Source: Microbotryum violaceum (taxonomy: Eukaryota). Taken from it: 64,000 bases of DNA. The translations under genes were made by a program, and so were the position numbers. Location of the stretch: the NCBI GenBank assembly GCA_001244265.2, contig CDLV01000005.1:1612001-1676000 (forward strand). Direction: 5' to 3'. Every line of letters starts with the position of its first letter. The stretch's first letter is position 1. The notes under the pieces are model-generated. The model had not been told where the DNA came from. It saw only the letters and a program-made list of their open reading frames with translations, and ran no database searches. This document shows, in pieces, positions 2,926 through 56,470 of the stretch.

Positions 2926-5900
2926 GGTTATAAGCCACAACAAGCTACCAGCGCGGTCACCTCCGTGCCCGCCCTCGTCGTCGTCGTTTTTTTTTTTTTT
3001 TTCGCGCTTCGCACGACTCAGCCTCGCCCTGCACCCTGCACGCCTGGCATGTCCGACGACGCCATGTCCTTAACGCCTGGCATGTCCGACGACGCCAAGT
3101 TCTTAACGCTCGCGGTCCCCCCACCGCGCCCTCCCACACAGGTCGCAGCCTTCGCTGTTTCCGACCTTCTGCGCGACACCAACGGCTATCAAGACTGGGT
3201 CCTGACGCTATGCTCCCGTCTGCCCTCCGACGTTATCGACTACCTTCAGTCTGGCGTCCCTTCGTCGTCCTGGCCGCCATCTTACGTTTCATTATGGGAT
3301 CACTACGCCCGCGCCTCGATCTGCGCCGCCGTCGACCCTCGGATGGTTCTTCCCGGCCTCTCGCAATACTTCGGCGACCCTCGCAGCGGTCACAAGATTT
3401 GGGTAGCTCTGCGCATGCGATATGGCGCTGTTTCGGCGGTCGATCTTCTCCCTGTCATCTCTCGACTCTTCAGTCCCGACCCTATGCCCGACACCGTCGA
3501 CGAGTTCCTTCAGTTTCGCGACCGATTCGAGAACGACTCCCGCCTCCTCGACGACTCAAAGGTGACGACGGATTCCCTACTAGCGTCACACTTGCTCGCC
3601 CGGATGCCCTCCTCCCTCTCCGCCTGGCGCACTACGTTTGTCAATTCTCAGGGCACATCCCGTACACTGCCCCCTTCCGCCGAGATCCTCGACCGTATCT
3701 ACCGCGAGATCAAGGCTCGTCCGGTCGACTCCCCCGTTGCCGCCACTACCACCTCTCAGCAACGCGTTCCCCATAGCCCTTGCCCCAACCCCTCTTGCCG
3801 AAAGATGCACTGGCTTCGGGACTGTCCCGACACCGCCTGGGCCGCCGCCTTCCGCGCCCGCAAGGCTGCCGCCGGAGCGACTTTGCGAAATCACAAGAAG
3901 GGTTCCCGCGCCGTCGCCTCTCCTGCCGTCACCTCCCCTGCCGTCGACGAGAAGTCAGAACCCGCCACCTTCACAGCGTGCCTCCTCGCCACTCCGTCTT
4001 CCTTTCCTAAGTCGGCTTGGCTCCTCGACTCCGGCGCTAATCGCCACATGGCCAACGACAGCCAACTCTTCTCCACCCTCCGGCCGTTCGCTGGCCCGCA
4101 CGTTGCTGGAGTTGCCGGTTCTCTTCCGTCCACCGGTTGTGGCTCCGTCTGCCTCTCGACGTCAGCTGGCCCCGTTGTAGCGACCGACGTCCTCTTGGTA
4201 CCTTCGCTCCCGTGCAACTTATTATCGGTCCGCCGCCTGGATTGACTCGGTTTCACCACCTCCTTCGGTTCCGGCCGCGCCACGATCCGCAACTCCTCAG
4301 GCACCGTCGTCGCCACGGCACAAGCAATTGCAAATGACCTATACGCGTTAACCGTCGCACCCTCACCCTGTATGCCCAATGCCCTCCTAGCCACCCCCAC
4401 AGAGTTTCCTTACTGACTATGCACTGTCGCTTCGCGCATTTACCCGTCGCGCAACTCAAGAGCGTTGTGCAGAAAGGTTTGGTCACTGGGGTGGATTGGG
4501 TATATTCAGAGGAAGAGGTTAGGTCTTTCAATTGCAATGCTTGTCTCGCTTCCAAAGCGCATGCCCTCCCTTTTGCTCGTTCCAAGTCCATTGCGTCCGG
4601 TCGCCTGGACCTCGTCCACGTCGACGTCGCCCAAATGCCTCGGGCCAGCTTCGGCGGTCATCGCTACATGCTTGTGATTGTCGACGACTACACCCGCAAA
4701 CATTGGTGCATCCTCCTCACTCACAAAAGTGACGTCTTTCACCGTCTCCGCGCCTGGATTCTTGAGGTAGAGAACGTCACGGGTGACCGGGTAAAGACTA
4801 TTCGCTCCGACAATGGTGGCGAGTTCACTCTTCGGAACTTTGTCGATTTCTGTGTGGCCAAGGGTATACGTCGCGAGCTCACTATTCCGTACACCCCTCA
4901 ACAAAACGGACGTGTTGAACGCACCAACCGCACCATCAAAGAGGGTATCCTTGCTTTACTCTACTCGGCAGGTGCTGACACGCGCCTCTGGGCTGAGGCC
5001 GCCACGTACTTCGTACACTGCAAGAACTTGATGCCGCACGCAGGCATTCGCGGTGATATCCCTGACACTCGTTGGTATGGCATTGCACCGGATGTATCCT
5101 CATTACGTGCCTTCGGTTGTCGTGCGTGGCACTACCTTCCCTCGGTTAAGCGCACCGCCCTCGATCCCAAGGCTGTGCCGCTCATGTTCGTAGGGCTCGA
5201 CGACCACGCGAAGGCGTATCGCCTATTCGACCCGGCTACACGCAAAATCCTCCTCAGTCGCAACGTCGTCTTTCGTGAATCCGAGTTCCCTGCCTTGCAG
5301 AGCGTGGTCGACACCCACACTGGCACCACTCCACTTCCTGTGGCCGCCGACATTCACCCCGACCAGGTAGACCACTCTGAGCCGTCGCTCGTTGCTTCCC
5401 CTCACTCTCTGGCGCCTCGTGCCGAGCCCCAGGACCCGCGCCCGCTGCCTTTGACCAAGGCCCGCGCCGTCCACTCCCGCCCGCGTCCTCCCTGACCAGG
5501 ACTCACGCGCGCGCCCTGCCTCTGACCAAGGCTCTCCTGCCTCCGACCAAGGCTCTCTTCCTGCCTCTGACCAAGGCTCTCTTCCTGCCTCTGACCAAGG
5601 CTCCCTCATCAACCGTACGGGTGGCCTCCCTGACCAGGACTCCCCCGACACCCACGCCTCTGACCAGGGCAGCTCCGACTCGGCAATCTCCACGCCTTGT
5701 CCATCCCTCGACCGGTGGTGCCACGTCCGTTGCCCGCGCCGTCCTTGCCCGCTCGATCCGAGTCCCCCGACCCTATCGACCTCTTGCCACGCTCGGGTGA
5801 TATCGCTTCCGTCTGTCTCGCACCTGAATTCCCCGACGACCTGGACGACGCCCTCCACTCGCCTCCACCTGTCGCCCACCTTGCCTCCGGTGTCGTCGCC

Positions 5901-6161: not shown

Positions 6162-6413
6162 TATTAGGAGCAATATACCACTGCACCAAAAGGAGAGGCA
6201 CCTCTACTTCAGGGAGCGCATATTGTCCTAGAAGTGAGATGGAGGGAGGTTCAACACCCCCTGTGCGCAAAGCTGAAGAGCTTGTGGCAGTGGGTGCGGC
6301 TTTGAAGGCAAGTGCGGGGCGCGCACGAAATTTGCCTGACCCAGGGGGTGCGGCTTTGGAGGCAAGTGCGGGGTGCGCGCAAAATTGCCTGACCCCAGGG
6401 GGCTTGAACCCAT

Positions 6414-6444
<31 letters not shown>

Positions 6445-6539
6445 TATCAGGAGCAATATACCACTGCACCAAAAGGAGAGGCACCTCTACTTCAGGGAGC
6501 GCATATTGTCCTAGAAGTGAGATGGAGGGAGGTTCAACA
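6162..6539 (-). mobile_element. TRIM (non-autonomous miniature LTR retrotransposon), 378 bp, inserted in the A1 RT
   Basis: 95-bp LTRs 6162-6256 and 6445-6539 (one difference seen); TSD caaag 6157-6161/6540-6544; PBS 6414-6444; PPT (ccccc on +) 6257-6261; internal two-copy ~54-bp repeat 6292-6400; host RT frame [11 protein letters not shown] is restored on removal. Confidence 0.95.
6414..6444 (-). promoter_or_regulatory. Extended primer-binding site complementary to the D-arm and anticodon arm (5' half) of a tRNA-Met(CAT)
   Basis: + strand reads gagc-agctggta-gctc-g-ttggg-ctcataa-cc: D-stem GAGC/GCTC, then anticodon stem and CAT anticodon loop. Confidence 0.85.
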
Positions 6540-8150
6540 CAAAGGTCGACTTGTTGCCCGTGGCGACTCTCAGCGCTCGGGCATCGATTTTGACGAGACC
6601 TTCGCACCCGTCGCTAAGTTCACATCCATTCGCGCACTCCTCGCCCTCGCAGCCGTCCATGGTTACCACATTCATCAGGCCGACATTGACAAGGCCTACC
6701 TCCACGGTAAATTGGACAAGCCACTCTACATTCGCGTACCCGATGGAGTCTACATGCCGGGCAAGGTTCTCCAGCTGCACCGCTCTCTCTACGGCTTGCG
6801 CCAGGCTGGACGTATTTGGAACGACGAGATCGACTCTGCCTTGTCGGCTCTCGGCTACACCGCCACGGAGTCGGACCACTGCGTTTACGTTCGGGCGGCC
6901 GGTGATGAGCGTCACTATATTGCGCTCTACGTTGACGACTTGCTCATGATCAGCCCTTCTCTCCCAGAGATCGAGCGTACCCTCCACGGTCTCGAGCAGC
7001 GTTACGGCGTCAAACGACTTGGTCAGGCGGAATACATCCTCGGCATCCAAATTCGGCGCTCCAACGACGGCTCCATCACTCTCAGTCAGGAGCAGTACCT
7101 CAAGGACGTTCTTGCTCGCTTTGGTATGTCCGATGCTCACTCTGTCGCCACACCCATGCAGCCCGATCTCCGCCTCGAAGTCGAACTCCAACCCACCCCA
7201 TTCCCGGATCGAACTCGGTACCTGCAAGCGATCGGCTCTCTTATGTATGCTTCTACCGGTACACGTCCCGACCTTGCCTACACCGTCGGATATCTGGCTC
7301 GCTTCTCTCGTTCACCGTCTGCTGCTGCCTGGGGTGCGATCAAGCACGCCTTCCGCTACGTTGCCGGCACTCTATCTCACGGCTTACGCTACACTCATGG
7401 TGATCCGGCTCCCTTGGTCGGCTACTCGGACTGCAATTGGGGTGCATGCCTCTTATCCTCCAGATCGACTATGGGTTACAACTTTACCTACGCAGGTGCC
7501 GCCGTCTCCTGGTCCTCCCGTCTACAGTCACGCGTCGCCGACTCCACTTGCGACGCCGAGTACCTCGCTCTGTCCCACGCCGGCAAGGAGGCCATTTTCC
7601 TACGTCAACTCTTTGGTGAGCTTGGTCTCCCTTCTTCACAGCCCGTCCTCATCTACGGCGACAATCAGGGTGCCAATGCTCTCACCAAAAACCCGGTCTT
7701 CCATGCTCGCACTCGACACATTCGGCTTCGCGAACACTTTGTCCGGGATATGGTCTCCATGGGCGACATTGTCGTCCAATACATTGCCACCAGCGAGATG
7801 ACGGCGGATATCTTCACCAAGGCCTTGTCTCGTGACCTCTTTGCTCGGCACCGCGGCCGACTTGGTGTCTGTGCTCCCTGATGTTTGAAGTAGGGGGGTG
7901 TGAGAGTTACAACTCTCTGTACTTCCTTCTCACATCATCTCCCTCTTTCTGTCTTGTCCTCTCTGTGATTTTTGGCCTGTCCTTCACCCTGCTCTATCAT
8001 CACTGGGCTTGGTCTGTGCACCTGCATCAAGCGCACGGACCTAGTCACTCTCTGCCTGGCTCCCCTTGCCTCTAGGCTGGGTCCGTGCGCTTGGCACTGG
8101 GGCACGGACCTGGTTGCGCACTTGCCCCAGCCAACTGGTTCCGCGCTTCT

Positions 8151-16661
<8,511 letters not shown>

Positions 16662-16976
16662 TGTGACAAGTCCACTCTCAGCTCGGCAGAGGCGCCTCGG
16701 TCGGTGCGCGCACCCGCTAGCCCGCCCCCCTGCGCTGGGGACTTAGACGCGCGCGACTGACTCAGCGCGCCAGCGCCGGGTGGATCCGTGCGCGTGCCCA
16801 TAGGCCGCCCCCTTTGCGGTGGGGACTTAGGCGCGCGCGACTGCCTAGCGCGCTAGCAACTTCACCCGCGACTGGGCCTATCCCAGCGCGGGTCCCCTTT
16901 CTATTTCTTAGCTTCCCTCTCACCACTTCTGTTCAACAATCGACCTCTCCTGACAGTAGTGGTGATTGTCTCATAG

Positions 16977-17045
16977 GTATGCTGAAATATACCACTTCTG
17001 TTCAACAATCGACCTCTCCTGACAGTAGTGGTGATCGTCTCATAG
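16977..17045 (+). other. Predicted 69-nt spliceosomal intron at the U5/PBS junction of the B2 5' LTR
   Basis: TAG|GTATGC donor at 16977, CCTGAC branch motif 17018-17023, TAG acceptor ending on the first G of the PBS (17045). Same 69-nt arrangement on - at 13704-13772 in B1. Confidence 0.75.
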
Positions 17046-17949
17046 GTTATTCGCCCATCGACCTACCGCTGGCATGGACACGTCGTCGCCCCTAACGACG
17101 GTGCCCACCCAACAATCCCCGCCGAACAGCTCGCCGCACTTACGTCGCTGCTGTCGGGTCTCACCACTGCCACATCCGCCACGTCGTCCGGCACCTCTCG
17201 CCCCGCCTTTCCCAAGCACGCACGCTTGGATGGGCCCAAGACGTTTGCGAGCTGGACACGCCAGCTTCGCCTCTGCCTCGCGGACGACATCCGCTCATAC
17301 GTCCTCGACGGGATTGTGCCGCCGACTGGACACCTTCGCACCGCTCTGCCCGCGATGTCGTGGCACGTGAGCTCCTAGCGAACTCGATTGACTCAGCCGA
17401 CATCTCGGCAGTCCTCGACCAAATCCCTACCGCCGACCTCACAGCGCCCAAATGTACTCGACGCTGAAATCGCGGTATGCTCCTGACGACGCCACTTGCA
17501 CGCTCGACTCTTCTCCCGACTGTGGAGCTTCCGGCCCATGCCTGGCACCGTTGGCGAATTCGACGGCTGGATCATGGAGTTCAAAGCTATTGCGCAAGAA
17601 ATCATCGATACGAAGACCACGATCAACGATGTTCTCGCCACACTCCTCCTCGCCATCTCTCACCCGTCCCTCGAGAGTTTCAAGGCGTCCTGTTCACCGA
17701 TGAACAGCGCCACTCAACGATCTCTCCCTGCCATCGATTCGCTCGCCGACCGCATGCGTGTTCAACTCCGGTCCACCAACGTCCCCAGCACCCAATCGGC
17801 CCTTCTTGCCTCGTCGTCGTCACGTCTACCCGTCCCAAGTGTCTCGCCTGTCGCAGCCCTTCGCACCGTGTGGCGGAGTGCCCTGTGAGAGCGACACACC
17901 CGCCGCCAGGACCCTGTCGCTCCTGCAAGCAGAATCACTGGTCTTTTGA

Positions 17950-18854
<905 letters not shown>

Positions 18855-21271
18855 TGAAGGTCCTCCGAACTGACAATGGTGGCGAGTACTGCTCGAGAGC
18901 ATTCACGGAGTTCTGCAAGGTGCGAGGTACGCGTCGACAATACTCTATCGGTCGCACGCCTCAACAAAACGGTCGGGCGAGCGGGTCAATCGTTCCATTG
19001 TTGAAGGTATTCTTGCCCTTCTGGCGGACGCCCATCTACCCAAGACATTCTGGGAGGAGGCTGCGGCTTACTTCGTTTACTGCAAGAACCTGGTTCAACA
19101 CTCGGCTCTCGACAAGGCAACACCGAACTCGGTCTGGCAGGGCGGACGCACTACAGCCTCCGCGCTTCATCCGTTTGGCTGTGCGGCTTGGCTCACGGTC
19201 GCGCCCGAATTCGCTCTAAACTCGACCCAAAAGCGGTTCGCGTTCTGTTCACACGGCTACGACTTGGCTTCCAAAGCCTTCCGCTTCTACGACACTACAA
19301 CAAAAAGGTCACCCTGGCAGAAATGCCACCTTCCTCGACACGAATTCCCCGGGTTATGTGGCGACTCCGCCGATCCAGACGATGACACGCACTTCGCCAG
19401 CGTCCCTTCGCCGACCCTCAAACCGCCGTCAAGTCATGGACCCCACTAGTAAGGTCGGCGCACATGGACGTCTCATCCCCTCTTGATGATTCTTCCATGA
19501 GCGCCGTTGACGTGGCCCCAGGGTACACTGGCGGATCCTTACTTAATCCCACAGATGCCGAATCGTCCGCGCACCGTCGCCTGCGCCGTCCTCGTCACTG
19601 TCTCCTGAACGGCCTCGTCCCCGCCGGCTGCACCATCGTCCGCGCTTCACCGTCGTTGGCTGCATGTTGTCACCTTCGCCTTACCCACTGAATCTGAGTA
19701 CTCCGCCGATCCTCTTGACCTCATCGGCTCACAGCCCCAGGCTCCCCTCGACCCCATGGACAACCCCCCCGACTTCAGCACGTACCGCGAGCCCGCATCG
19801 GCGAGGAGTCGCCCGAGAACTCGATCTCATTGGACGCCACTCTCACGACGAGTCCCCGACGAAATCGATTTCCTCACTCGCCATCACCGCGCGTTCATTG
19901 CGACTGACGACGACAACTCTGACACCGAGGCCATCGAACCCGTCAAATCCATTACGAGCGACCACAGACCTGGCGGGAAGCGATGTCGGGCGACAAATGA
20001 GGTATGGGCCAAGGCCGCTGCCGATGAGTTCAATTCCATGCGCGACGACTTCAAGGTCTTCACCATTGATGACCGTTCTACAGTACCTGCGGGCGCGACT
20101 GTCGTAACATCCAAGTTCGTCTGGCAAACAAAACGGAATGCACTCGGCGAGATCACCGGACACAAGGCACGGCTGGTAGCGCAGGGCAATCGGCAACGGG
20201 ACGGCATTGACTTCAACGAGACGTTCGCACCCGTTGCCCGCTTCTCTTCGATACGCTCACTCCTCGCGCTCGCGGCTGCCAACGGCCTGCATGTGCACCA
20301 AGCGGACATCGACAAAGCCTATCTTCACGGCGACCTCGATCACGACATCTGGATGACGGCACCAACGTTTGATCTTCCAGCAACAAGGTGCTTCGACTGC
20401 GCCGTTCCATCTACGGGCTCAAACAGGCCGGCCGAATCTGGAATCGACAAATCGACGCTTCGCTTCGCGACCTCGGTTACACGGTGACAGGCACCGATCA
20501 CTGCATATACTCTCGGCTCGATGATCGTCAACGCTCACACTACATCGCGCTGTACGTCGACGACCTTCTGATGATCAGCCCGGACCTGGCCGAAATCGAA
20601 CGCGTCATCTCGGGCCTGGAACAACGTTACGGTGTCAAACGCCTTGGACCGGCCGAGTACATCCTCGCATCCAGATCAGGCGTCTCAACGACGGCTCTAT
20701 CGCCCTATGCCAGGAACGGTACATCATGGACGTGCTCGCTCGGTTCCACTTCGACACTACGACTCGCGCGCACCATCCCCATGACCCCCGGTCTTTCGCT
20801 CACCGCCATTCCGGGCCAAGGCACGGAACAGATCAGGTCGTGGTATCTACAGGCAATCGTCGCTCCTCTTACATCTCGCTTGGCACTCGCCCCGACATCG
20901 CCTTCGCCGTATCTTACCTGGCCCGCTTTGCCAACAACCCGGGTCAGCGCCATTGGATTGCCGTCAAGCACGTCCTACGCTACCTCCGAGCCACTTATCG
21001 CGACGAGCTTCTCTACACTCGTGGAAAGACGGACATCAAGGGCGTGGTAGGTTACTCCGATGCCAACTGGGGTGCCTGCGTCGACACATCGGTCTCCACC
21101 ATGGGTTTTGTCTTCTACATTGCCGGCTCCGCTGTGTCCTGGTCCTCCAAGCGTCAATCGCGGGTCGCCGACTCTACCACCGACGCGGAATACCTCTCTC
21201 TCTCGCATGCTGGCAAGGAAGGGATCTACCTCAGTCAGCTGCTTGAGGAGCTCCATGTCCAGTCCGGTATC

Positions 21272-25659
<4,388 letters not shown>

Positions 25660-26636
25660 GATTGCTGTCAAGCACGTCCTACGCTACCTCCGAGCCACTT
25701 ATCGCGACGAGCTTCTCTACACTCGTGGTAAGACGGACATCAAGGGCGTGGTAGGTTACTCCGATGCCAACTGGGTGCCTGCGTCAACACATCGGTCTCC
25801 ACCATGGGTTTTGTCTTCTACATTGCCGGCTCCGCTGTGTCCTGGTCCTCCAAGCGTCAATCGCGGGTCGCCGACTCTACCACCGACGCGGAATACCTCG
25901 CTCTCTCGCATGCTGGCAAGGAAGGGATCTACCTCAGTCAGCTGCTTGAGGAGCTCCATGTCCAGTCCGGTATCCCCACTCACATCTACACTGACAACGA
26001 AGCTGCTGCCGCCGTCGCACGAGACCCTGTCTGCGCATCCGGGACTCGACATATCCGTCTGCGTGAGCACTTCGTTCGGGACATGGTGAATCGGGGTGAG
26101 ATTTCTCTTTTGCACGTGGGGACAAGCAACATGGTGGCCGACATTTTTACCAAGGCACTTGGCCCGAAGATTTTTTCCATGCATTGCTATGCTCTCGGCT
26201 TGCGCACTCGACATCCACGGCTTGGGTCTGCCTCGCATTCGCGTGGGGGGGGGTGTGACAAGTCTACTCTCAGCTCGGCAGAGGCGCCTCGGTCGGTGCG
26301 CGCACCCGCTAGCCCGCCCCCTGCGCTGGGGACTTAGACGCGCGCGACTGACTCAGCGCGCCAGCGCCGGGTGGATCCGTGCGCGTGCCCACTAGGCCGC
26401 CCCCTTGCGGTGGGGACTTAGGCGCGCGCGACTGCCTTAGCGCGCTAGCAACTTCACCCGCGACTGGGCCTATCCCAGCGCGGGTCCCCTTTCTATTTCT
26501 TAGCTTCCCTCTCACCACTTCTGTTCAACAATCGACCTCTCCTGACAGTAGTGGTGATTGTCTCATAGGTATGCTGAAATAGACCACTTCTGTTCAACAA
26601 TCGACCTCTCCTGACAGTAGTGGTGATTGTCTCATA

Positions 26637-26897: not shown

Positions 26898-27492
26898 TGT
26901 GAGAGTTACAACTCTCTGTACTTCCTTCTCACATCATCTCCCTCTTTCTGTCTTGTCCTCTCTGTGATTTTTGGCCTGTCCTTCACCCTGCTCTATCATC
27001 ACTGGGCTTGGTCTGTGCACTTGCATCAAGTGCACGGACCTAGTCACTCTCTGCCTGGCTCCCCTTGCCTCTTGGCTGGGTCCGTGCGCTTGGCACTGGG
27101 GCACGGACCTGGTTGCGCACTTGCCCCAGCCAACTGGTTCCGCGCTTCTCACTCTCCTGCTCAAGCAACTTCATTGGTCTGGTCTCCCTGGTCCGTCGAT
27201 CAGAGACTCACCACCGCTTGAGCAGGTGAGCACTACACTTTCTAGTTCCTCTCTCCCTTCCATAGCCATGGTAACTTACTGTAGCACTTGAGCAGGTGTG
27301 TAATCCCAAGCAACTTCATTGGTCTGGTCTCCCTGGTCCGTCGATCAGAGACTCACCACCGCTTGAGCAGTTGTGTGGTTCATAGGTTATAAGCCACAAC
27401 AAGCTACCAGCACGGTCACCTCCGTGCCCGCCCTCGTCGTCGTTTTTTTTTTTTTCGCGCTTCGCACGACTCAGCCTCGCCCTGCACCCTGC

Positions 27493-27690
27493 ACGCCTGG
27501 CATGTCCGACGACGCCAAGTCCTTAACGCCTGGCATGTCCGACGACGCCAAGTCCTTAACGCCTGGCATGTCCGACGACGCCAAGTCCTTAACGCCTGGC
27601 ATGTCCGACGACGCCAAGTCCTTAACGCCTGGCATGTCCGACGACGCCAAGTCCTTAACGCCTGGCATGTCCGACGACGCCAAGTCCTTA
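27493..27690 (+). repeat. 33-bp coding minisatellite x6 (TPGMSDDAKSL) at the gag start
   Basis: Unit acgcctggcatgtccgacgacgccaagtcctta; 2 copies in A1 (3040-3105), 1 diverged copy in A2. Confidence 0.95.
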
Positions 27691-28602
27691 ACGCTTGCGG
27701 TCCCCCACCGCGCCCTCCCACACAGGTCGCAGCCTTCGCTGTTTCCGACCTTCTGCGCGACACCAACGGCTATCAAGACTGGGTCCTGACGCTATGCTCC
27801 CGTCTGCCCTCCAACGTTATCGACTACCTTCAGTCTGGCGTCCCTTCGTCGTCCTGGCCGCCATCTTACGTTTCATTATGGGATCACTACGCCCGCGCCT
27901 CGATCTGCGCCGCCGTCGACCCTCGGATGGTTCTTCCCGGCCTCTCGCAATACTTCGGCGACCCTCGCAGCGGTCACAAGATTTGGGTAGCTCTGCGCAT
28001 GCGATATGGCGCTGTTTCGGCGGTCGATCTTCTCCCTGTCATCTCTCGACTCTTCAGTCCCGACCCTATGCCCGACACCGTCGACGAGTTCCTTCAGTTT
28101 CGCGACCGATTCGAGAACGACTCCCGCCTCCTCGACGACTCAAAGGTGACGACGGACTCCCTACTAGCGTCACACTTGCTCGCCCGGATGCCCTCCTCCC
28201 TCTCCGCCTGGCGCACTACGTTTGTCAATTCTCAGGGCACATCCCGTACACTGCCCCCTGCCGCCGAGATCCTCGACCGTATCTACCGCGAGATCAAGGC
28301 TCGTCCGGTCGACTCCCCCGTTGCCGCCACTACCACCTCTCAGCAACGCGTTCCCCATAGCCCTTGCCCCAACCCTCTTGCCGAAAGATGCACTGGCTTC
28401 GGGACTGTCCCGACACCGCCTGGGCCGCCGCCTTCCGCGCCCGCAAGGCTGCCGCCGGAGCGACTTCGCGAAATCACAAGAAGGGTTCCCGCGCCGTCGC
28501 CTCTCCTGCCGTCACCTCCCCTGCCGTCGACGAGACGTCAGAACCCGCCACCTTCACAGCGTGCCTCCTCGCCACCCGTCTTCCTTTCCTAAGTCGGCTT
28601 GG

Positions 28603-33917
<5,315 letters not shown>

Positions 33918-35974: not shown

Positions 35975-36480
35975 TGTGATGTTGTCACACCTGCTCAAGC
36001 GGTGGTAAGTCTCTGATCGAAGGACCGAGGGAGACCAGACCAAGAAGTTGCTTTTTACACACCTGCTCAAGCGGTGGTAAGTCTCTGATCAAAGGACCGA
36101 GGGAGACCAGACCAAGAAGTTGCTTTTTACACACCTGCTCAAGCACTACAGTAAGTTACCACATCTAGAGGGGTGAAAGATGATAGGAAGAGTAGTGCTC
36201 ACCTGCTCAAGCGGTGGTAAGTCTCTGATCGAAGGACCGAGGGAGACCAGACCAAGAAGTTGCTTGAGCAGCAGCGAAACCAGAGTGGGGCCATTTGGCT
36301 GGGCCCAAGTCAGCCCAGCCAAAGTCAGGCGCACGGACCTGGCCCAGGTGCAGAGACCAGGCCCAGAGTGGAGAGCTAAGGTGGTGAAAAGTAGGCCAAA
36401 AGTGATCAAAACGAAGAGAGGAGGATGTTGAGGTAGGTACAAGATACAAGAAGGACATGAAGGAGATATTTGATCTCACA
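35975..36480 (-). repeat. Solo LTR related to family A (TG...CA), with three copies of the U5 unit and the GTGAGC..CAG intron-like segment; no TSD
   Basis: On -: tgtgagatc...acatcaca; unit ..gatcagagacttaccaccgcttgagcag x3; flanks gctag and aggcg belong to different elements (A3 and C1). Confidence 0.85.
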
Positions 36481-36653
36481 AGGCGCACAGAGCGAGGCTG
36501 GGACTTAGGCGCGCGGAGCGAGCCTGGGCCATTGGCTCACCCCCGAGGCTCGCTGGCTGTGGACTTGGCGCGCGTGGCTCTTTTGTTGTTAGCTTCCCAT
36601 TCATCACTCTTGGCTATAACTACACCGCTGACGTAGTAGAGTTGATCGAATAG

Positions 36654-36722
36654 GTATGTTGAAATGGATTCATCACTCTTGGCTATAACTACACCGCTGA
36701 CGTAGTAGAGTTGATCGAATAG
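36654..36722 (+). other. Predicted 69-nt spliceosomal intron at the U5/PBS junction of the C1 5' LTR
   Basis: TAG|GTATGT donor, GCTGAC branch motif 36696-36701, TAG acceptor completed by PBS G 36722; identical 55-bp units 36599-36653 and 36668-36722. Confidence 0.8.
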
Positions 36723-36820
36723 GTTATAAGCCCACGAGCTACCAGCCCCGCCGCTTGCGTTTTTTTTTTTCACTCGAGCCCAGCCACTCGAGCCGCACAC
36801 GTCCATTGCACCATCACATC

Positions 36821-39800: not shown

Positions 39801-41420
39801 CCTCGCTCATCCGTACCGCCGGGCGCCACCATCGTCACCTCCAAATTCGTCTGGAAGACCAAGCGCAACGCCAGCGGTGAAGTCACGGGGCGGAAGGCAC
39901 GTCTTGTAGCGCAGGGTAACCGACAGCGCAATGGCATCGACTTCTCAGAAACCTTCGCACCCGTCGCCCGCTTCTCCTCCATTCGCTGCCTCTTGGCTCT
40001 TGCCGCTGCCAACGGCTACCACGTTCATCAGGCCGACATCGACAAGGCTTACCTACACGGCGAGCTCGATCATGATATCTGGATGACGACACCACGAGGT
40101 TTCGACTTCCCAAGCGATAAGGTTCTCCGGCTGCGACGTTCAATCTACGGTCTCAAGCAGGCCGGTCGCATCTGGAATCGTCACATTGACACATCACTCA
40201 GGAATCTCGGGTACAAGGCAACAGGCACTGATCACTGCATTTACTCTCGCATTGACGATCAGCAGCGGCCTCACTATATCGCCTTGTATGTCGACGACCT
40301 CCTCATTGTCAGTCCCCACCTCGACGAGATCGAACGTGTCATCTGCGGCCTTGAACAGCGATACGGCGTTAAACGACTCGGCCCGGCGGAGTACATCCTC
40401 GGAATCCAAATCCGCCGCCTGGACGACGGCTCCATTGCTCTATCCCAGGAGCGCTACATCATGGACGTGCTAGCCCGTTTCCACTTTGACACCACGACAC
40501 GCGGCACTACGGTGCCGATGACGCCCGGCCTCTCGCTCACGGCAATTCCGGGTCAGGGAACGGAGCGCATTCGTTCGTGGTACCTACAGGCCATCGGCTC
40601 CCTCCTTTACATCTCCCTCGGCACTCGACCCGACATTGCCTTCGCCGTCTCGTACCTGTCCCGGTTCGCCAACAACCCCGGCCGCCGCCATTGGATTGCC
40701 GTCAAACACGTCCTTCGCTACCTTTGCGCCACGTACCGCGATGAGCTTCTCTATGCCCGCGGCCCAGCAAAAGTCACGGGTGTGGTTGGTTATTCTGATG
40801 CGAACTGGGGCGCCTGCGTCGACACATCCATCTCAACGATGGGCTACGTATTTTACTTGGCAGGCGCCGCCGTCTCTTGGTCGTCGAAGCGTCAGACTCG
40901 GGTAGCAGATTCCACCACTGATGCCGAGTACCTGGCCTTGTTGCACGCGGGTAAGGAAGCGATCTACCTTACCCAACTCCTCTCCGAGCTCCACGTTTCA
41001 CCAATCGCTGCAGCTCACATCTTCACCGACAACAAGGCCGCGGCCGCCGTCGCTCACGACCCCGTTTGCACCTCCGGCACCCGGCACATTCGCCTCCGCG
41101 AGCATTTTGTCCGTGACATGGTCAATCGAGGTGATATCTCTCTCTCACACGTTGGCACAGCAGACATGGTTGCGGACGTATTCACCAAAGCGCTAGGCCC
41201 CAAGATTTTTGGTACACATTGCTTTGCTCTAGGCCTCCGGACGCGACATCCACGGCTCAAGTCTACCTCGCGTTCGCGTGGGGGGGGGTGTGAGGAATCC
41301 ACTCTCTGCTCGGCTCAGGACTTAGGCGCGCGGAGCGAACCGGGCGCGGACTTAGGCGCGCGGAGCGAGCCGGGCGCCCCGGCCCAGGACTTAGGCGCAC
41401 AGAGCGAGGCTGGGACTTAG
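36821..41420 (+). CDS. Near-intact copia Gag-PR-IN-RT-RNaseH polyprotein of C1 (a few single-base frameshifts, possibly sequencing errors)
   Basis: ATG 36821 (MDSSPAS..); ORFs 36970-39495 (two CCHC-type knuckles, [14 protein letters not shown]) and 39495-41420 ([24 protein letters not shown]). Confidence 0.85.
39253..39357 (+). other. Conserved, self-complementary intron-like block in the IN-RT linker
   Basis: GTAAGG...CTTACTTAAC..ACAG; nearly identical at 11188-11291(-), 19449-19554(+), 23585-23690(-), 31000-31105(-), 47513-47618(-) although B and C flanks differ. Confidence 0.6.
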
Positions 41421-41587
41421 GCGCGCGGAGCGAGCCTGGGCCATTGGCTCACCCCTGAGGCTCGCTGGCTGTGGACTTGGCGCGCGTGGCTCTTTTGTTG
41501 TTAGCTTCCTATTCATCACTCTTGGCTATAACTACACCGCTGACGTAGTAGAGTTGATCGAATAGGTATGTTGAAATGGATTCATCA

Positions 41588-50252
<8,665 letters not shown>

Positions 50253-51578
50253 ACCAGGTTCTCCGGCTGTGGCACTTGATCTACGGTCTTAAGCAGGCCG
50301 GTCGCATCTGGAATTGCCACATTGACACATTGCTCAGGAGTCTTGGGTACACGGCAACGGGCACTGATCACTGCATTTACTCTCGCATTGATGATCAGAA
50401 GCAGCCCCATTATATTGCATTATATGTTGACGATCTCCTCGTTGTCAGCCCCGCCCTCAACGAGATTGACTGTGTCATCTCCGGCCTCAAACAGTGATAC
50501 GGCGTCAAACGACTCGGCCCTGCAGAATACATCCTCGGCATCCAGATTCGACGCCTGGAAGACGGCTCCATTGCTTTATCCCAGGAGCGCTACATCATGG
50601 ACGTGCTCGCCCACTTTCACTTCGACACCACAACGCGCGGCGCTACGGTGCCAATGACGCCCGGCCTCTCGCTCACGGCAGTACCGGGTCAGGGAACGGA
50701 ACGCATTTGGTCGTGGTACCTGCAAGCCATCGGCTCCCTCCTATACATTTCACTCAGCACTCACCCGACATTGCCTTTGCCGTCTTGTACCTGTCCCGGT
50801 TCGCCAACAACCCCGGCCGCTGCCATTGGGTCGCCGTCAAACACGTCCTTCGCTACCTTCGCGCTACGTACCGTGATGAGCTACTCTACGCCTGCGGTCC
50901 AGCCAAAATTACAGGGGTGGTTGGCTATTCCGATGCAAACTGGGGTGCCTGCGTTGACACGTCAATCTCCACAATGGGCTTCGTCTTTTACTTGGCCGGC
51001 TCCGCCGTCTCTTGGTCATCGAAGCGTCAGACTCGGGTAGCAGATTCCACCACTGATGCCAAATACCTCGCCTTGTCGCATGCTGGTAAAGAAGCGATTT
51101 ACCTTACACAACTCCTCTCCGAGCTCCACGTTTGCCCGGTCAATGCGGCTCACATTTTCACGGACAATGAGGCCGCGGCCGCCATCGCTCACGACCCCGT
51201 TCACACCTCTGGCACCCGACACATACGCCTCCGCAAGCACTTTGTTCGCGACATGGTCCACCAAGGCGATATCTCCCTCTTACACGTCGGCACAGCGAAC
51301 ATGGTTGCGGACATATTCACCAAGGCGCTAGGTCCCAAGATTTTTGGTGTACATTGCTATGCTCTAGGCCTCCGGACGCGTCACCCACGGCTCAAGTCTA
51401 CCTCGCGTTCGCGTGGGGGGGGGGGGGGGTGTGAGGAATCCACTCTCCGCACGGCTCAGGACTTAGGCGCGCGGATCAAGCCTGGGAAACTTGGGGTGCG
51501 TGGCTCTCACACTGTTAGCTTCCTATTCATCACTCTTGGCTAGAACTACATCGCTGACGTAGTAGAGTTGATCGAATA
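50253..51578 (+). mobile_element. Decayed family C RT-RNaseH fragment (C3) with a short 3' LTR 51430-51578 (single U5 unit)
   Basis: [21 protein letters not shown]; stop at 50495-50497; G-run PPT; LTR tgtgaggaatcc...gatcgaata. Confidence 0.88.

Positions 51579-56470
<4,892 letters not shown>

Follow-up and report, generated by a model that had tools for sequence, protein, structure and literature searches.

A tandemly duplicated LTR end, conserved across Ty1/copia families of Microbotryum and possibly spliced as a leader intron

The 64-kb window analysed here, that is, the whole stretch from 1,612,001 to 1,676,000 of Microbotryum violaceum contig CDLV01000005.1 (assembly GCA_001244265.2; ~60% GC), is filled entirely by nested retrotransposons, and no host genes and no tRNA genes were found in it. 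One region is Ty3/gypsy-like. Long open reading frames (ORFs) match the Pfam families gag_pre-integrs, rve, and RVT_2 in copia order, and gag, protease, integrase, and RVT_2 lie between long terminal repeats (LTRs) with a 5-bp target-site duplication, as expected of Ty1/copia elements. Our subject is a 69-nt feature at the downstream end of the LTRs of two copia lineages, B (with B' and B'') and C (with C' and C''), whose LTRs are ~72% alike over aligned bases. Here the entire downstream end of the LTR and the start of the primer-binding site (PBS) are tandemly duplicated in conserved form, and the feature may represent a spliced leader intron. The reverse-transcriptase ORF of a family C element is 77–96% identical, at a query cover of at least 90%, to proteins of Microbotryum saponariae and M. 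silenes-dioicae; proteins of M. intermedium are less similar, and Rhodotorula and Sporobolomyces come next at ~45–50%. Several copia families with such LTR ends are recently active. Three intact young elements have LTR pairs that are alike at 381/382, 381/381, and 239/241 positions (99.7, 100, and 99.2%), with two copies of the repeated unit in both LTRs.

The arrangement can be followed in the B-family 5' LTR that heads Table 1, where reading the sequence bore out the order of unit, spacer, unit, and PBS that the original prediction had described at 16922–17060. The duplicated piece begins directly behind a pyrimidine-rich block and reaches 3 nt into the PBS. It consists of a 54-nt unit plus GGT, which makes a 57-nt direct repeat with a period of 69 nt and 12 unique bases (16979–16990) between the copies. 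The left edge of the repeat falls right after the pyrimidine-rich block, at a Y/A step in B, B', and C, and its right edge is GGT, the first three bases of the PBS. In C, the left edge lies 4 nt nearer to the conserved TTAGCTTCC of that block and the remaining unit is 4 nt shorter, with unit length and period unchanged. ATA is the end of the LTR proper, as judged from the target-site duplications of two elements (GGGGG and CCAAG), and the gag ATG follows at 17074. CT-rich blocks precede fungal transcription start sites, and the pyrimidine-rich block may likewise be a core promoter or start region.

After GGT, the linker between the units continues with ATG, and the resulting GGTATG equals the start of a perfect PBS, GGTTATG, minus one T. 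This T would presumably sit opposite the modified base next to the anticodon of the primer, although this is speculation. The spacer also holds a three-codon upstream ORF (ATG..TAG in other copies). At its last base, 16990, the g/t variation reported in the original prediction was recovered, with T in this copy and G in the other copies of the window as well as in all covering contigs of the public runs X1, X3, and X11 (run X4 has zero depth at this position). On either side of unit 1 in B, CTATTTC (16900–16906) and the linker end GAAATAG (16984–16990, in other B copies) are reverse complements, and C has a different pair, CCATT and AATGG, around its unit 1. Such pairs possibly form an enclosing stem, or they may have arisen by chance.

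Table 1. Coordinates of the LTR-end features and copia elements discussed here (positions within the window)
Feature	Position	Strand	Details
B-family copia 5' LTR, 383 bp	16662–17044	+	TGTGA start, ATA end; from self-BLAST and LTR start/end scan; 99.5% alike to B1 5' LTR
Pyrimidine-rich block	16893–16921	+	Adjoins unit 1 upstream; conserved TTAGCTTCC in 14/14 B/C tails
Unit 1 (54 nt, 16922–16975) and G at 16976	16922–16976	+	Putative 5' exon; predicted hairpin
Spacer GTATGCTGAAATAT	16977–16990	+	Putative 5' splice site GTATGC at 16977–16982
Unit 2 (54 nt)	16991–17044	+	One mismatch to unit 1; putative 3' part of intron
CTGAC, putative branch site	17019–17023	+	A at 17022, 23 nt before acceptor G; matches CTRAY
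TAG, putative acceptor	17043–17045	+	G is the first PBS base
PBS region	17045–17070	+	Starts GGTTAT; degenerate complement of Met(CAU) tRNA anticodon stem-loop and 5' half
Complete B element, 5294 bp	8793–14086	-	Target-site duplication GGGGG; two-unit LTRs at both ends, donors 13772 and 8860
B' element	33917–28603	-	Target-site duplication CCAAG; LTRs 381/381 alike
B' 5' LTR	33535–33917	-	Unit 1 33657–33604; donor 33602; unit 2 33588–33535; acceptor G/PBS 33534
C 5' LTR, 5'-truncated	36481–36722	+	Unit 1 36599–36652; donor GTATGT 36654; unit 2 36668–36721; acceptor G/PBS 36722
C 3' LTR, two units	41289–41633	+	Donor 41566; flank begins with A, so no acceptor
C' 5' LTR, two units	48133–48524	-	Donor 48200; two mismatches between units; perfect PBS
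B LTR, one unit	21272–21583	-	3' LTR type; G-run before it
B'' 5' LTR, one unit	52250–52563	-	Followed by PBS
C'' short 3' LTR, one unit	51430–51578	+
A-family LTR tail	27160–27384	+	Unit 27160–27225; X 27226–27295 (GTGAGC start, CAG end); GTGTGTAAT 27296–27304; unit 27305–27370; 14-nt tail; PBS 27385

Using the conserved TTAGCTTCC motif, we collected 14 LTR tails of the B/C type in the window. Eleven of them have two units (six B, two B', two C, and one C'), always with a 54-nt unit and a period of 69 nt. The remaining three (one each of B, B'', and C''), among them the 5' LTR of B'' with its PBS, have a single unit and are the exact "excised" form of the two-unit LTRs; the elements to which they belong are broken or rearranged. 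With up to two mismatches allowed, the window yields 10 matches to the linker motif, compared with 0.45 expected by chance, and the eleventh linker copy, that of C' (48200, minus strand), has three mismatches. The feature is thus more general than originally predicted, comprising more copies, one-unit forms, concerted evolution of the units, and a second lineage (family A, below). Matches to the linker motif were also found at 32 metagenome and 6 viral-contig loci, but none of these 38 loci has a flanking repeat (at most 22/55 positions alike), and they are therefore regarded as chance matches.

The 5' LTR at 25659 (two units) and the LTR at 21583 (one unit) were considered as a single insertion with unequal LTRs, and this pairing was rejected. 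The target-site duplications do not agree (CAATC vs. GATAC) and the internal region is rearranged, so the pair is not evidence for unequal LTRs. At 25659–21272, the inverted B copy and its surroundings form a rearranged nest, not a simple insertion. On both sides of the inverted copy lies ~315 bp of B-element internal sequence (20957–21271 and 25660–25974), the inner copy lacks ~790 bp, and the 5-bp target-site duplications match for neither the inner nor the outer copy.

Short-read assembly graphs can collapse or cycle tandem repeats, and a 99-nt contig of run X3 (record 18; the 69-nt period plus 30 nt), a candidate for a third unit, probably reflects such a graph cycle. Nevertheless, it is very improbable that the repeat as a whole stems from the assembly, from chance, or from independent recent duplications. 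Eleven copies across B, B', C, and C' have one common linker, both LTRs agree in three elements with target-site duplications or near-identical LTRs, and contigs of independent runs (X1 record 4; X11 records 12 and 13) bridge unit 1, linker, and unit 2, so the assembly of the window did not create the repeat. Over 16640–17400, the contigs of X1, X3, X4, and X11, four of the 16 public runs in which the element occurs, have no joint that spans the 69 nt; they are short, break at the repeat, and cannot reveal starts, ends, or splicing. The single joint among them (X11, depth 5, skipping 84 nt at 16739–16824) falls in an 84-nt repeat of the unique 3' region (U3) of the LTR. Record 5 of X1 (depth 13) passes from the CT-rich block through one unit to the PBS and gag, and it may derive from a one-unit DNA copy or from a walk through the graph.

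Within the two-unit LTRs, only 4 of 594 positions distinguish unit 1 from unit 2 (none in eight LTRs, one in two LTRs, and two in the old C' copy), and yet the units of B and C are alike at only 34–37 of 59–61 aligned columns (~60%). All of the differences that separate the B, B', and C units are present in both units; within family B, the copies at 25277 and 50252 have the G/A difference of unit position 21 in unit 1 and unit 2 alike. The same linker across families whose units are ~60% alike, together with near-identical units within each LTR, excludes chance duplication, and the comparison of the units indicates that their near-identity is concerted evolution. Selection on splicing would not make the units identical, and some process must therefore copy one unit onto the other. 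The simplest route would be strand transfer in a shifted register during reverse transcription, in which strong-stop cDNA pairs with the two-unit terminally redundant region (R) at the RNA 3' end. This route would require that the RNA 3' end has both units and that the strong-stop cDNA is sometimes one unit long, which could result from splicing of the leader or from a reverse-transcriptase jump between the units. Such register shifts would also throw off one-unit LTRs, namely when the strong-stop cDNA pairs with the upstream unit.

The duplication doubles ATA-G/GT and therefore places AG/GT at both ends of one period, the arrangement of introns that arise by tandem duplication, and removal of one period restores a one-unit leader. 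We scanned both strands of the whole window for splice-like signals (donor GTRNGY, branch CTRAY 8–40 nt before the end, and acceptor YAG). A matching donor is present in all 11 two-unit LTRs (TAG/GTATGC in B and B', TAG/GTATGT in C and C'), with a CTGAC whose A precedes the position of the acceptor G by 23 nt (B) or 22 nt (C). Donor positions 1–5, GTATG, are invariant in all 11, the variation being confined to position 6 and the linker. Since the LTR ends in ATA, the acceptor G comes from the PBS or from the flank; TAG is found in 6/6 PBS-adjacent two-unit LTRs but in only two of the other five, where the flank happens to begin with G. The full signal set at exactly 69 nt occurs in 6/6 PBS-adjacent two-unit LTRs, and a spacing of exactly 69 nt is also seen in those two. 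The window has 429 donor-like sites, 30 of which have a compatible partner at 50–100 nt; 10 of these 30 are the linker donors, leaving a background of 20/419 (~5%). The LTR signals agree with the values for 2022 Fusarium introns (G1 100, T2 99, A3 74, G5 93, CTRAY 91%, YAG 93%; PMC5677156), a consensus drawn from Fusarium rather than from Microbotryum.

An analogous arrangement is present in family A (LTRs at 26898–27384, 2509–2925, and 8151–8636, and a minus-strand copy at 36480–35986), whose 66-nt unit is unrelated in sequence to those of B and C and is closed by a 7-bp stem (−21.9 kcal/mol, z = −1.48). The copy with its PBS at 27385 reads unit, CAG/GTGAGC.., a 70-nt module X, ..CAG/GTGTGTAAT, unit, and CAG/TTGTGTGG.., followed by the PBS, giving the junctions CAG/GTGAGC, CAG/GTGTGT, and CAG/TTG. 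In the copy at 2926, which reads unit, unit, X is missing precisely from its GT to its AG, and the copy at 36000 reads unit, X, unit, unit. Internal units are followed by G, which makes a GT, and the last unit is followed by T in 3/3 5' LTRs. As in B and C, the units are identical within each LTR, and differences between subfamilies are common to all units. The three copies of X agree throughout the first 11 nt, a 15-nt block near the 3' end, and the last 7 nt, with a variable middle; with n = 3, this conservation profile appears intron-like. The A tails vary in the number of modules (2771–2915, 27160–27384, 8405–8636, and 35986–36285 on the minus strand). The next GT follows X at zero distance, which resembles a recursive splice site. 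Just downstream of the A PBS and leader lies a 33-nt tandem repeat, with 6.1 perfect copies at 27493–27694 and 2.1 at 3040–3109.

Taken together, these signals make it plausible that the LTR-end repeat is a spliced leader intron, a tentative interpretation to which we give somewhat less than an even chance. The left edge of the repeat would then be the transcription start, with transcripts beginning at or near unit 1, and the duplicated piece would match minus-strand strong-stop DNA and the first bases of the primer in extent, the duplication itself being an old accident of reverse transcription. A part of the transcripts would be spliced from GTATGY to the PBS-completed TAG through the branch site CTGAC, which would remove the short upstream ORF; in 3' LTRs, the acceptor would normally be incomplete. 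In this way, an intron-poor element would have gained a spliced leader in an intron-rich basidiomycete.

Several observations weigh against this interpretation. Among the donor positions, +4 T (22%) and, in the B families, +6 C (16%) are minority choices in the Fusarium table (PMC5677156). Both GT and AG are by-products of the duplicated ATA/GGT junction and therefore carry no independent weight. CTGAC lies within a longer conserved block in the 3' half of the unit and is retained in 3/3 one-unit LTRs, which have no intron; the units of family A lack CTRAY altogether, having only CTCAC or CTTAC. The 15 bases between the units of B and C are alike at 13/15 positions under the 54-nt unit definition, which leaves no length difference, and the linker appears more conserved than the unit only at a borderline level (Fisher one-sided p = 0.045, or p = 0.16 when the 2-nt length difference of an earlier alignment is counted). 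Splicing does not account for an exon unit and an intron unit staying identical. Reverse-transcriptase jumps between direct repeats explain the one-unit LTRs and the X-less A copy equally well, and transcription that starts inside unit 2 would make splicing impossible. It is worth noting that one-unit DNA copies yield the same junction as splicing, and junction reads alone therefore cannot settle the matter.

These points also bear on the original prediction. Its description of B and C as diverged in sequence but common in architecture (a unit of 54 nt by our definition, a period of 69 nt, the donor, CTGAC 22–23 nt upstream, and a PBS-completed TAG) holds, as does its statement that B' (33535–33660, minus strand) has diverged units, at 9 columns of a 56-nt comparison with B, and keeps CTGAC and TAG. 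It had further argued from conserved signals amid diverged sequence for selection over chance duplication. Chance is excluded, through the common linker and the near-identical units, but the argument from the signals is weak given the automatic GT and AG and the block around CTGAC. Likewise, when donor, branch, and acceptor are set against their neighbouring bases, as it had proposed, the invariance of GTATG stands, while the excess of linker over unit conservation is not secure and the conservation of CTGAC is block-wide.

About as likely as the spliced intron is a tandem repeat of R and the unique 5' region (U5) that is never spliced but is kept and homogenised through the region of minus-strand transfer, with splice-like motifs that are incidental to the duplication of ATA/GGT. 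Such a repeat may aid reverse transcription through longer homology, paired hairpins beside the PBS, or packaging, or it may be merely tolerated. Units that are near-identical within LTRs and diverged between families behave like R rather than like an intron, and the conserved 3' half of the unit reaches well past CTGAC. Copy number varies, with one or two units in B and C, and in A two units with or without X, or three plus X. Each unit is predicted to fold into a hairpin, although with weak z-scores (−0.97 to −1.94; unit 1 of B alone at −16.2 kcal/mol, z = −1.83). The two-unit leader of B reaches −38.2 kcal/mol, compared with −29.5 ± 3.8 for shuffled sequences (z = −2.28); by contrast, the fold signal is weak or absent in B' (z = −1.11) and C (z = +0.92). 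Moreover, the B and C units align inconsistently in MAFFT and their stem registers differ, so we make no claim of covariation. An unspliced repeat also leaves unexplained the invariant first five bases of the linker and the pattern of G after internal and T after final units in A. Direct repeats are readily deleted by reverse transcriptase, so the persistence of this one through the divergence of B and C suggests some benefit.

The linker itself might instead be a module for transcript ends or starts, such that unit 1 is R, the linker is a poly(A)/cleavage site or a second core promoter, and linker plus unit 2 form U5. It is A/T-rich in a 60% GC context, conserved between B and C, and TATG..GAAATA-like, and its GAAATAG is the reverse complement of the CTATTTC upstream of unit 1 in B. 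The resulting sizes would be ordinary, since copia elements commonly have an R of ~55–65 nt and a U5 of ~57–69 nt. We nonetheless consider this arrangement decidedly unlikely, as linker-less one-unit LTRs exist in three lineages, one of them a 5' LTR with PBS, and the linker module alone offers no route to homogenisation of the units.

A further possibility, unlikely but attractive for what it would explain, is a self-restoring leader intron, in which spliced RNA serves as the template and the intron is rebuilt in the progeny each cycle. The 5' copy of R would be spliced to a one-unit leader, whereas the 3' copy, with neither a PBS G to complete its acceptor nor an exon downstream, would remain unspliced. 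One-unit strong-stop cDNA would then pair with the downstream unit at the RNA 3' end, and further synthesis would copy the linker and the upstream unit again, so that unit 2 would be overwritten by unit 1 in each cycle; one-unit LTRs would result where the cDNA paired with the upstream unit. This would account together for concerted evolution, persistence, sporadic one-unit copies, and the sharp edges of the repeat, the left edge being the RNA 5' end and the right edge the splice junction at the PBS. If true, a retrotransposon would keep an intron even with spliced RNA as its template.

The PBS adjoining the repeat is itself variable. A perfect version, GGTTATGAGCCC (with the CAT complement), occurs at 6444, 48132, and 45717. 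Across the PBS copies (17045, 33534, 36722, 2926, 52249, 6444, 48132, and 45717), the variants differ at positions complementary to the anticodon, which read TAA in A, B', and C (GGTTATAAGCC); the PBS of B reads GGTTATTCGCC and that of B'' reads GGTTTTGAGCCC. GGT is the only invariant part. This variability would fit little primer sequence being copied back into plus-strand DNA. The primer is probably the Met(CAU) tRNA; as the window has no tRNA gene, the complementarity is judged from the CAT-containing complement of the loop. In the leaders of A and C, a long T run lies 40–60 nt downstream of the PBS (2985–3002, 36761–36771, and 8694–8703).

The U3 of the B and C LTRs has tandem repeats of 83–84 nt (65 nt in C) around GGACTTAGGCGCGCG, at 16677–16857 and in equivalent regions such as 13900–14071, 26296–26449, and 41311–41441; these repeats are probably enhancer-like. 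The window also contains a miniature LTR element (6162–6540, minus strand) with two 96-nt LTRs (6540–6445 and 6257–6162) that are 99% alike and ~187 nt apart, a perfect PBS (GGTTATGAGCCC), and a purine run ahead of the 3' LTR. It has no coding capacity and is therefore similar to TRIMs, miniature retrotransposons with terminal repeats. Its LTR has a block related to the B/C unit, with CTGAA instead of CTGAC, and a contig of run X4 connects this LTR end to a PBS (loose end at 17036).

The processes invoked above have counterparts in known systems. Reverse transcriptase is known to delete direct repeats and to shift register in R regions, and such events would account for the one-unit LTRs, the variable unit number in A, and concerted evolution; however, they do not predict a conserved linker that begins with GT or an intact set of splice signals. 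As for priming, Drosophila copia and Ty5 are described as using half-tRNA priming from the anticodon loop of the initiator tRNA (PMC5371799, citing Ke et al., 1999). Their PBS resembles the one in Microbotryum in being complementary to the Met(CAU) anticodon stem-loop and abutting the LTR end. The Microbotryum elements differ in that the PBS is mutated in several families (at two loop positions in B) and in that its first bases are included both in the repeat and in the putative splice sites.

LTR retrotransposons are expected to lose introns within the part of the RNA that they copy. In Drosophila copia, BARE, and Arabidopsis EVD, genomic RNA is spliced to a gag-only mRNA, and there, as would be the case here, host splicing tunes copia expression; those introns, however, remove pol, lie in the coding region rather than in R/U5, and have no duplicated exon end. 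Introns inside LTRs have been proposed in maize LTR retrotransposons as well, where the authors call spliced transcripts within LTRs the first such evidence (bioRxiv 10.64898/2026.05.08.723830). In maize, the introns have a mean length of 1303 bp, are found in large LTRs, belong mostly to non-coding LTR-contained RNAs, and have read support, whereas the fungal case is a 69-nt leader intron beside the PBS that is predicted from sequence only. In the limited literature that we searched, no short R/U5 intron next to the PBS was described for any fungal copia element.

If the leader is spliced, it would offer a clean example from nature of tandem duplication giving rise to an intron, here derived from a strong-stop-sized LTR end whose acceptor is functional only beside the PBS, in recently active families of a fungus with much-studied non-recombining, transposon-rich regions. 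Even if it is not spliced, the strict co-evolution of the R/U5 units would provide a sequence-level readout of the strand-transfer register in copia elements. Intron birth by tandem duplication of an AGGT site was reportedly proposed by Rogers, and a case in potato is said to exist. In a human cell construct, such a duplication gave a working intron with an efficiency of ~16% (Hellsten et al., 2011, PMC3265369). The Microbotryum repeat differs from AGGT-duplication introns in that it lies in an LTR leader rather than a coding exon, has a 12-nt unrepeated linker, takes its acceptor G from the PBS, keeps its copies identical over a long divergence, and is a putative intron predicted from sequence. 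It resembles them in being a direct repeat with AG/GT at both junctions, in the restoration of the original sequence by removal of one period, and in the existence of one-unit alleles.

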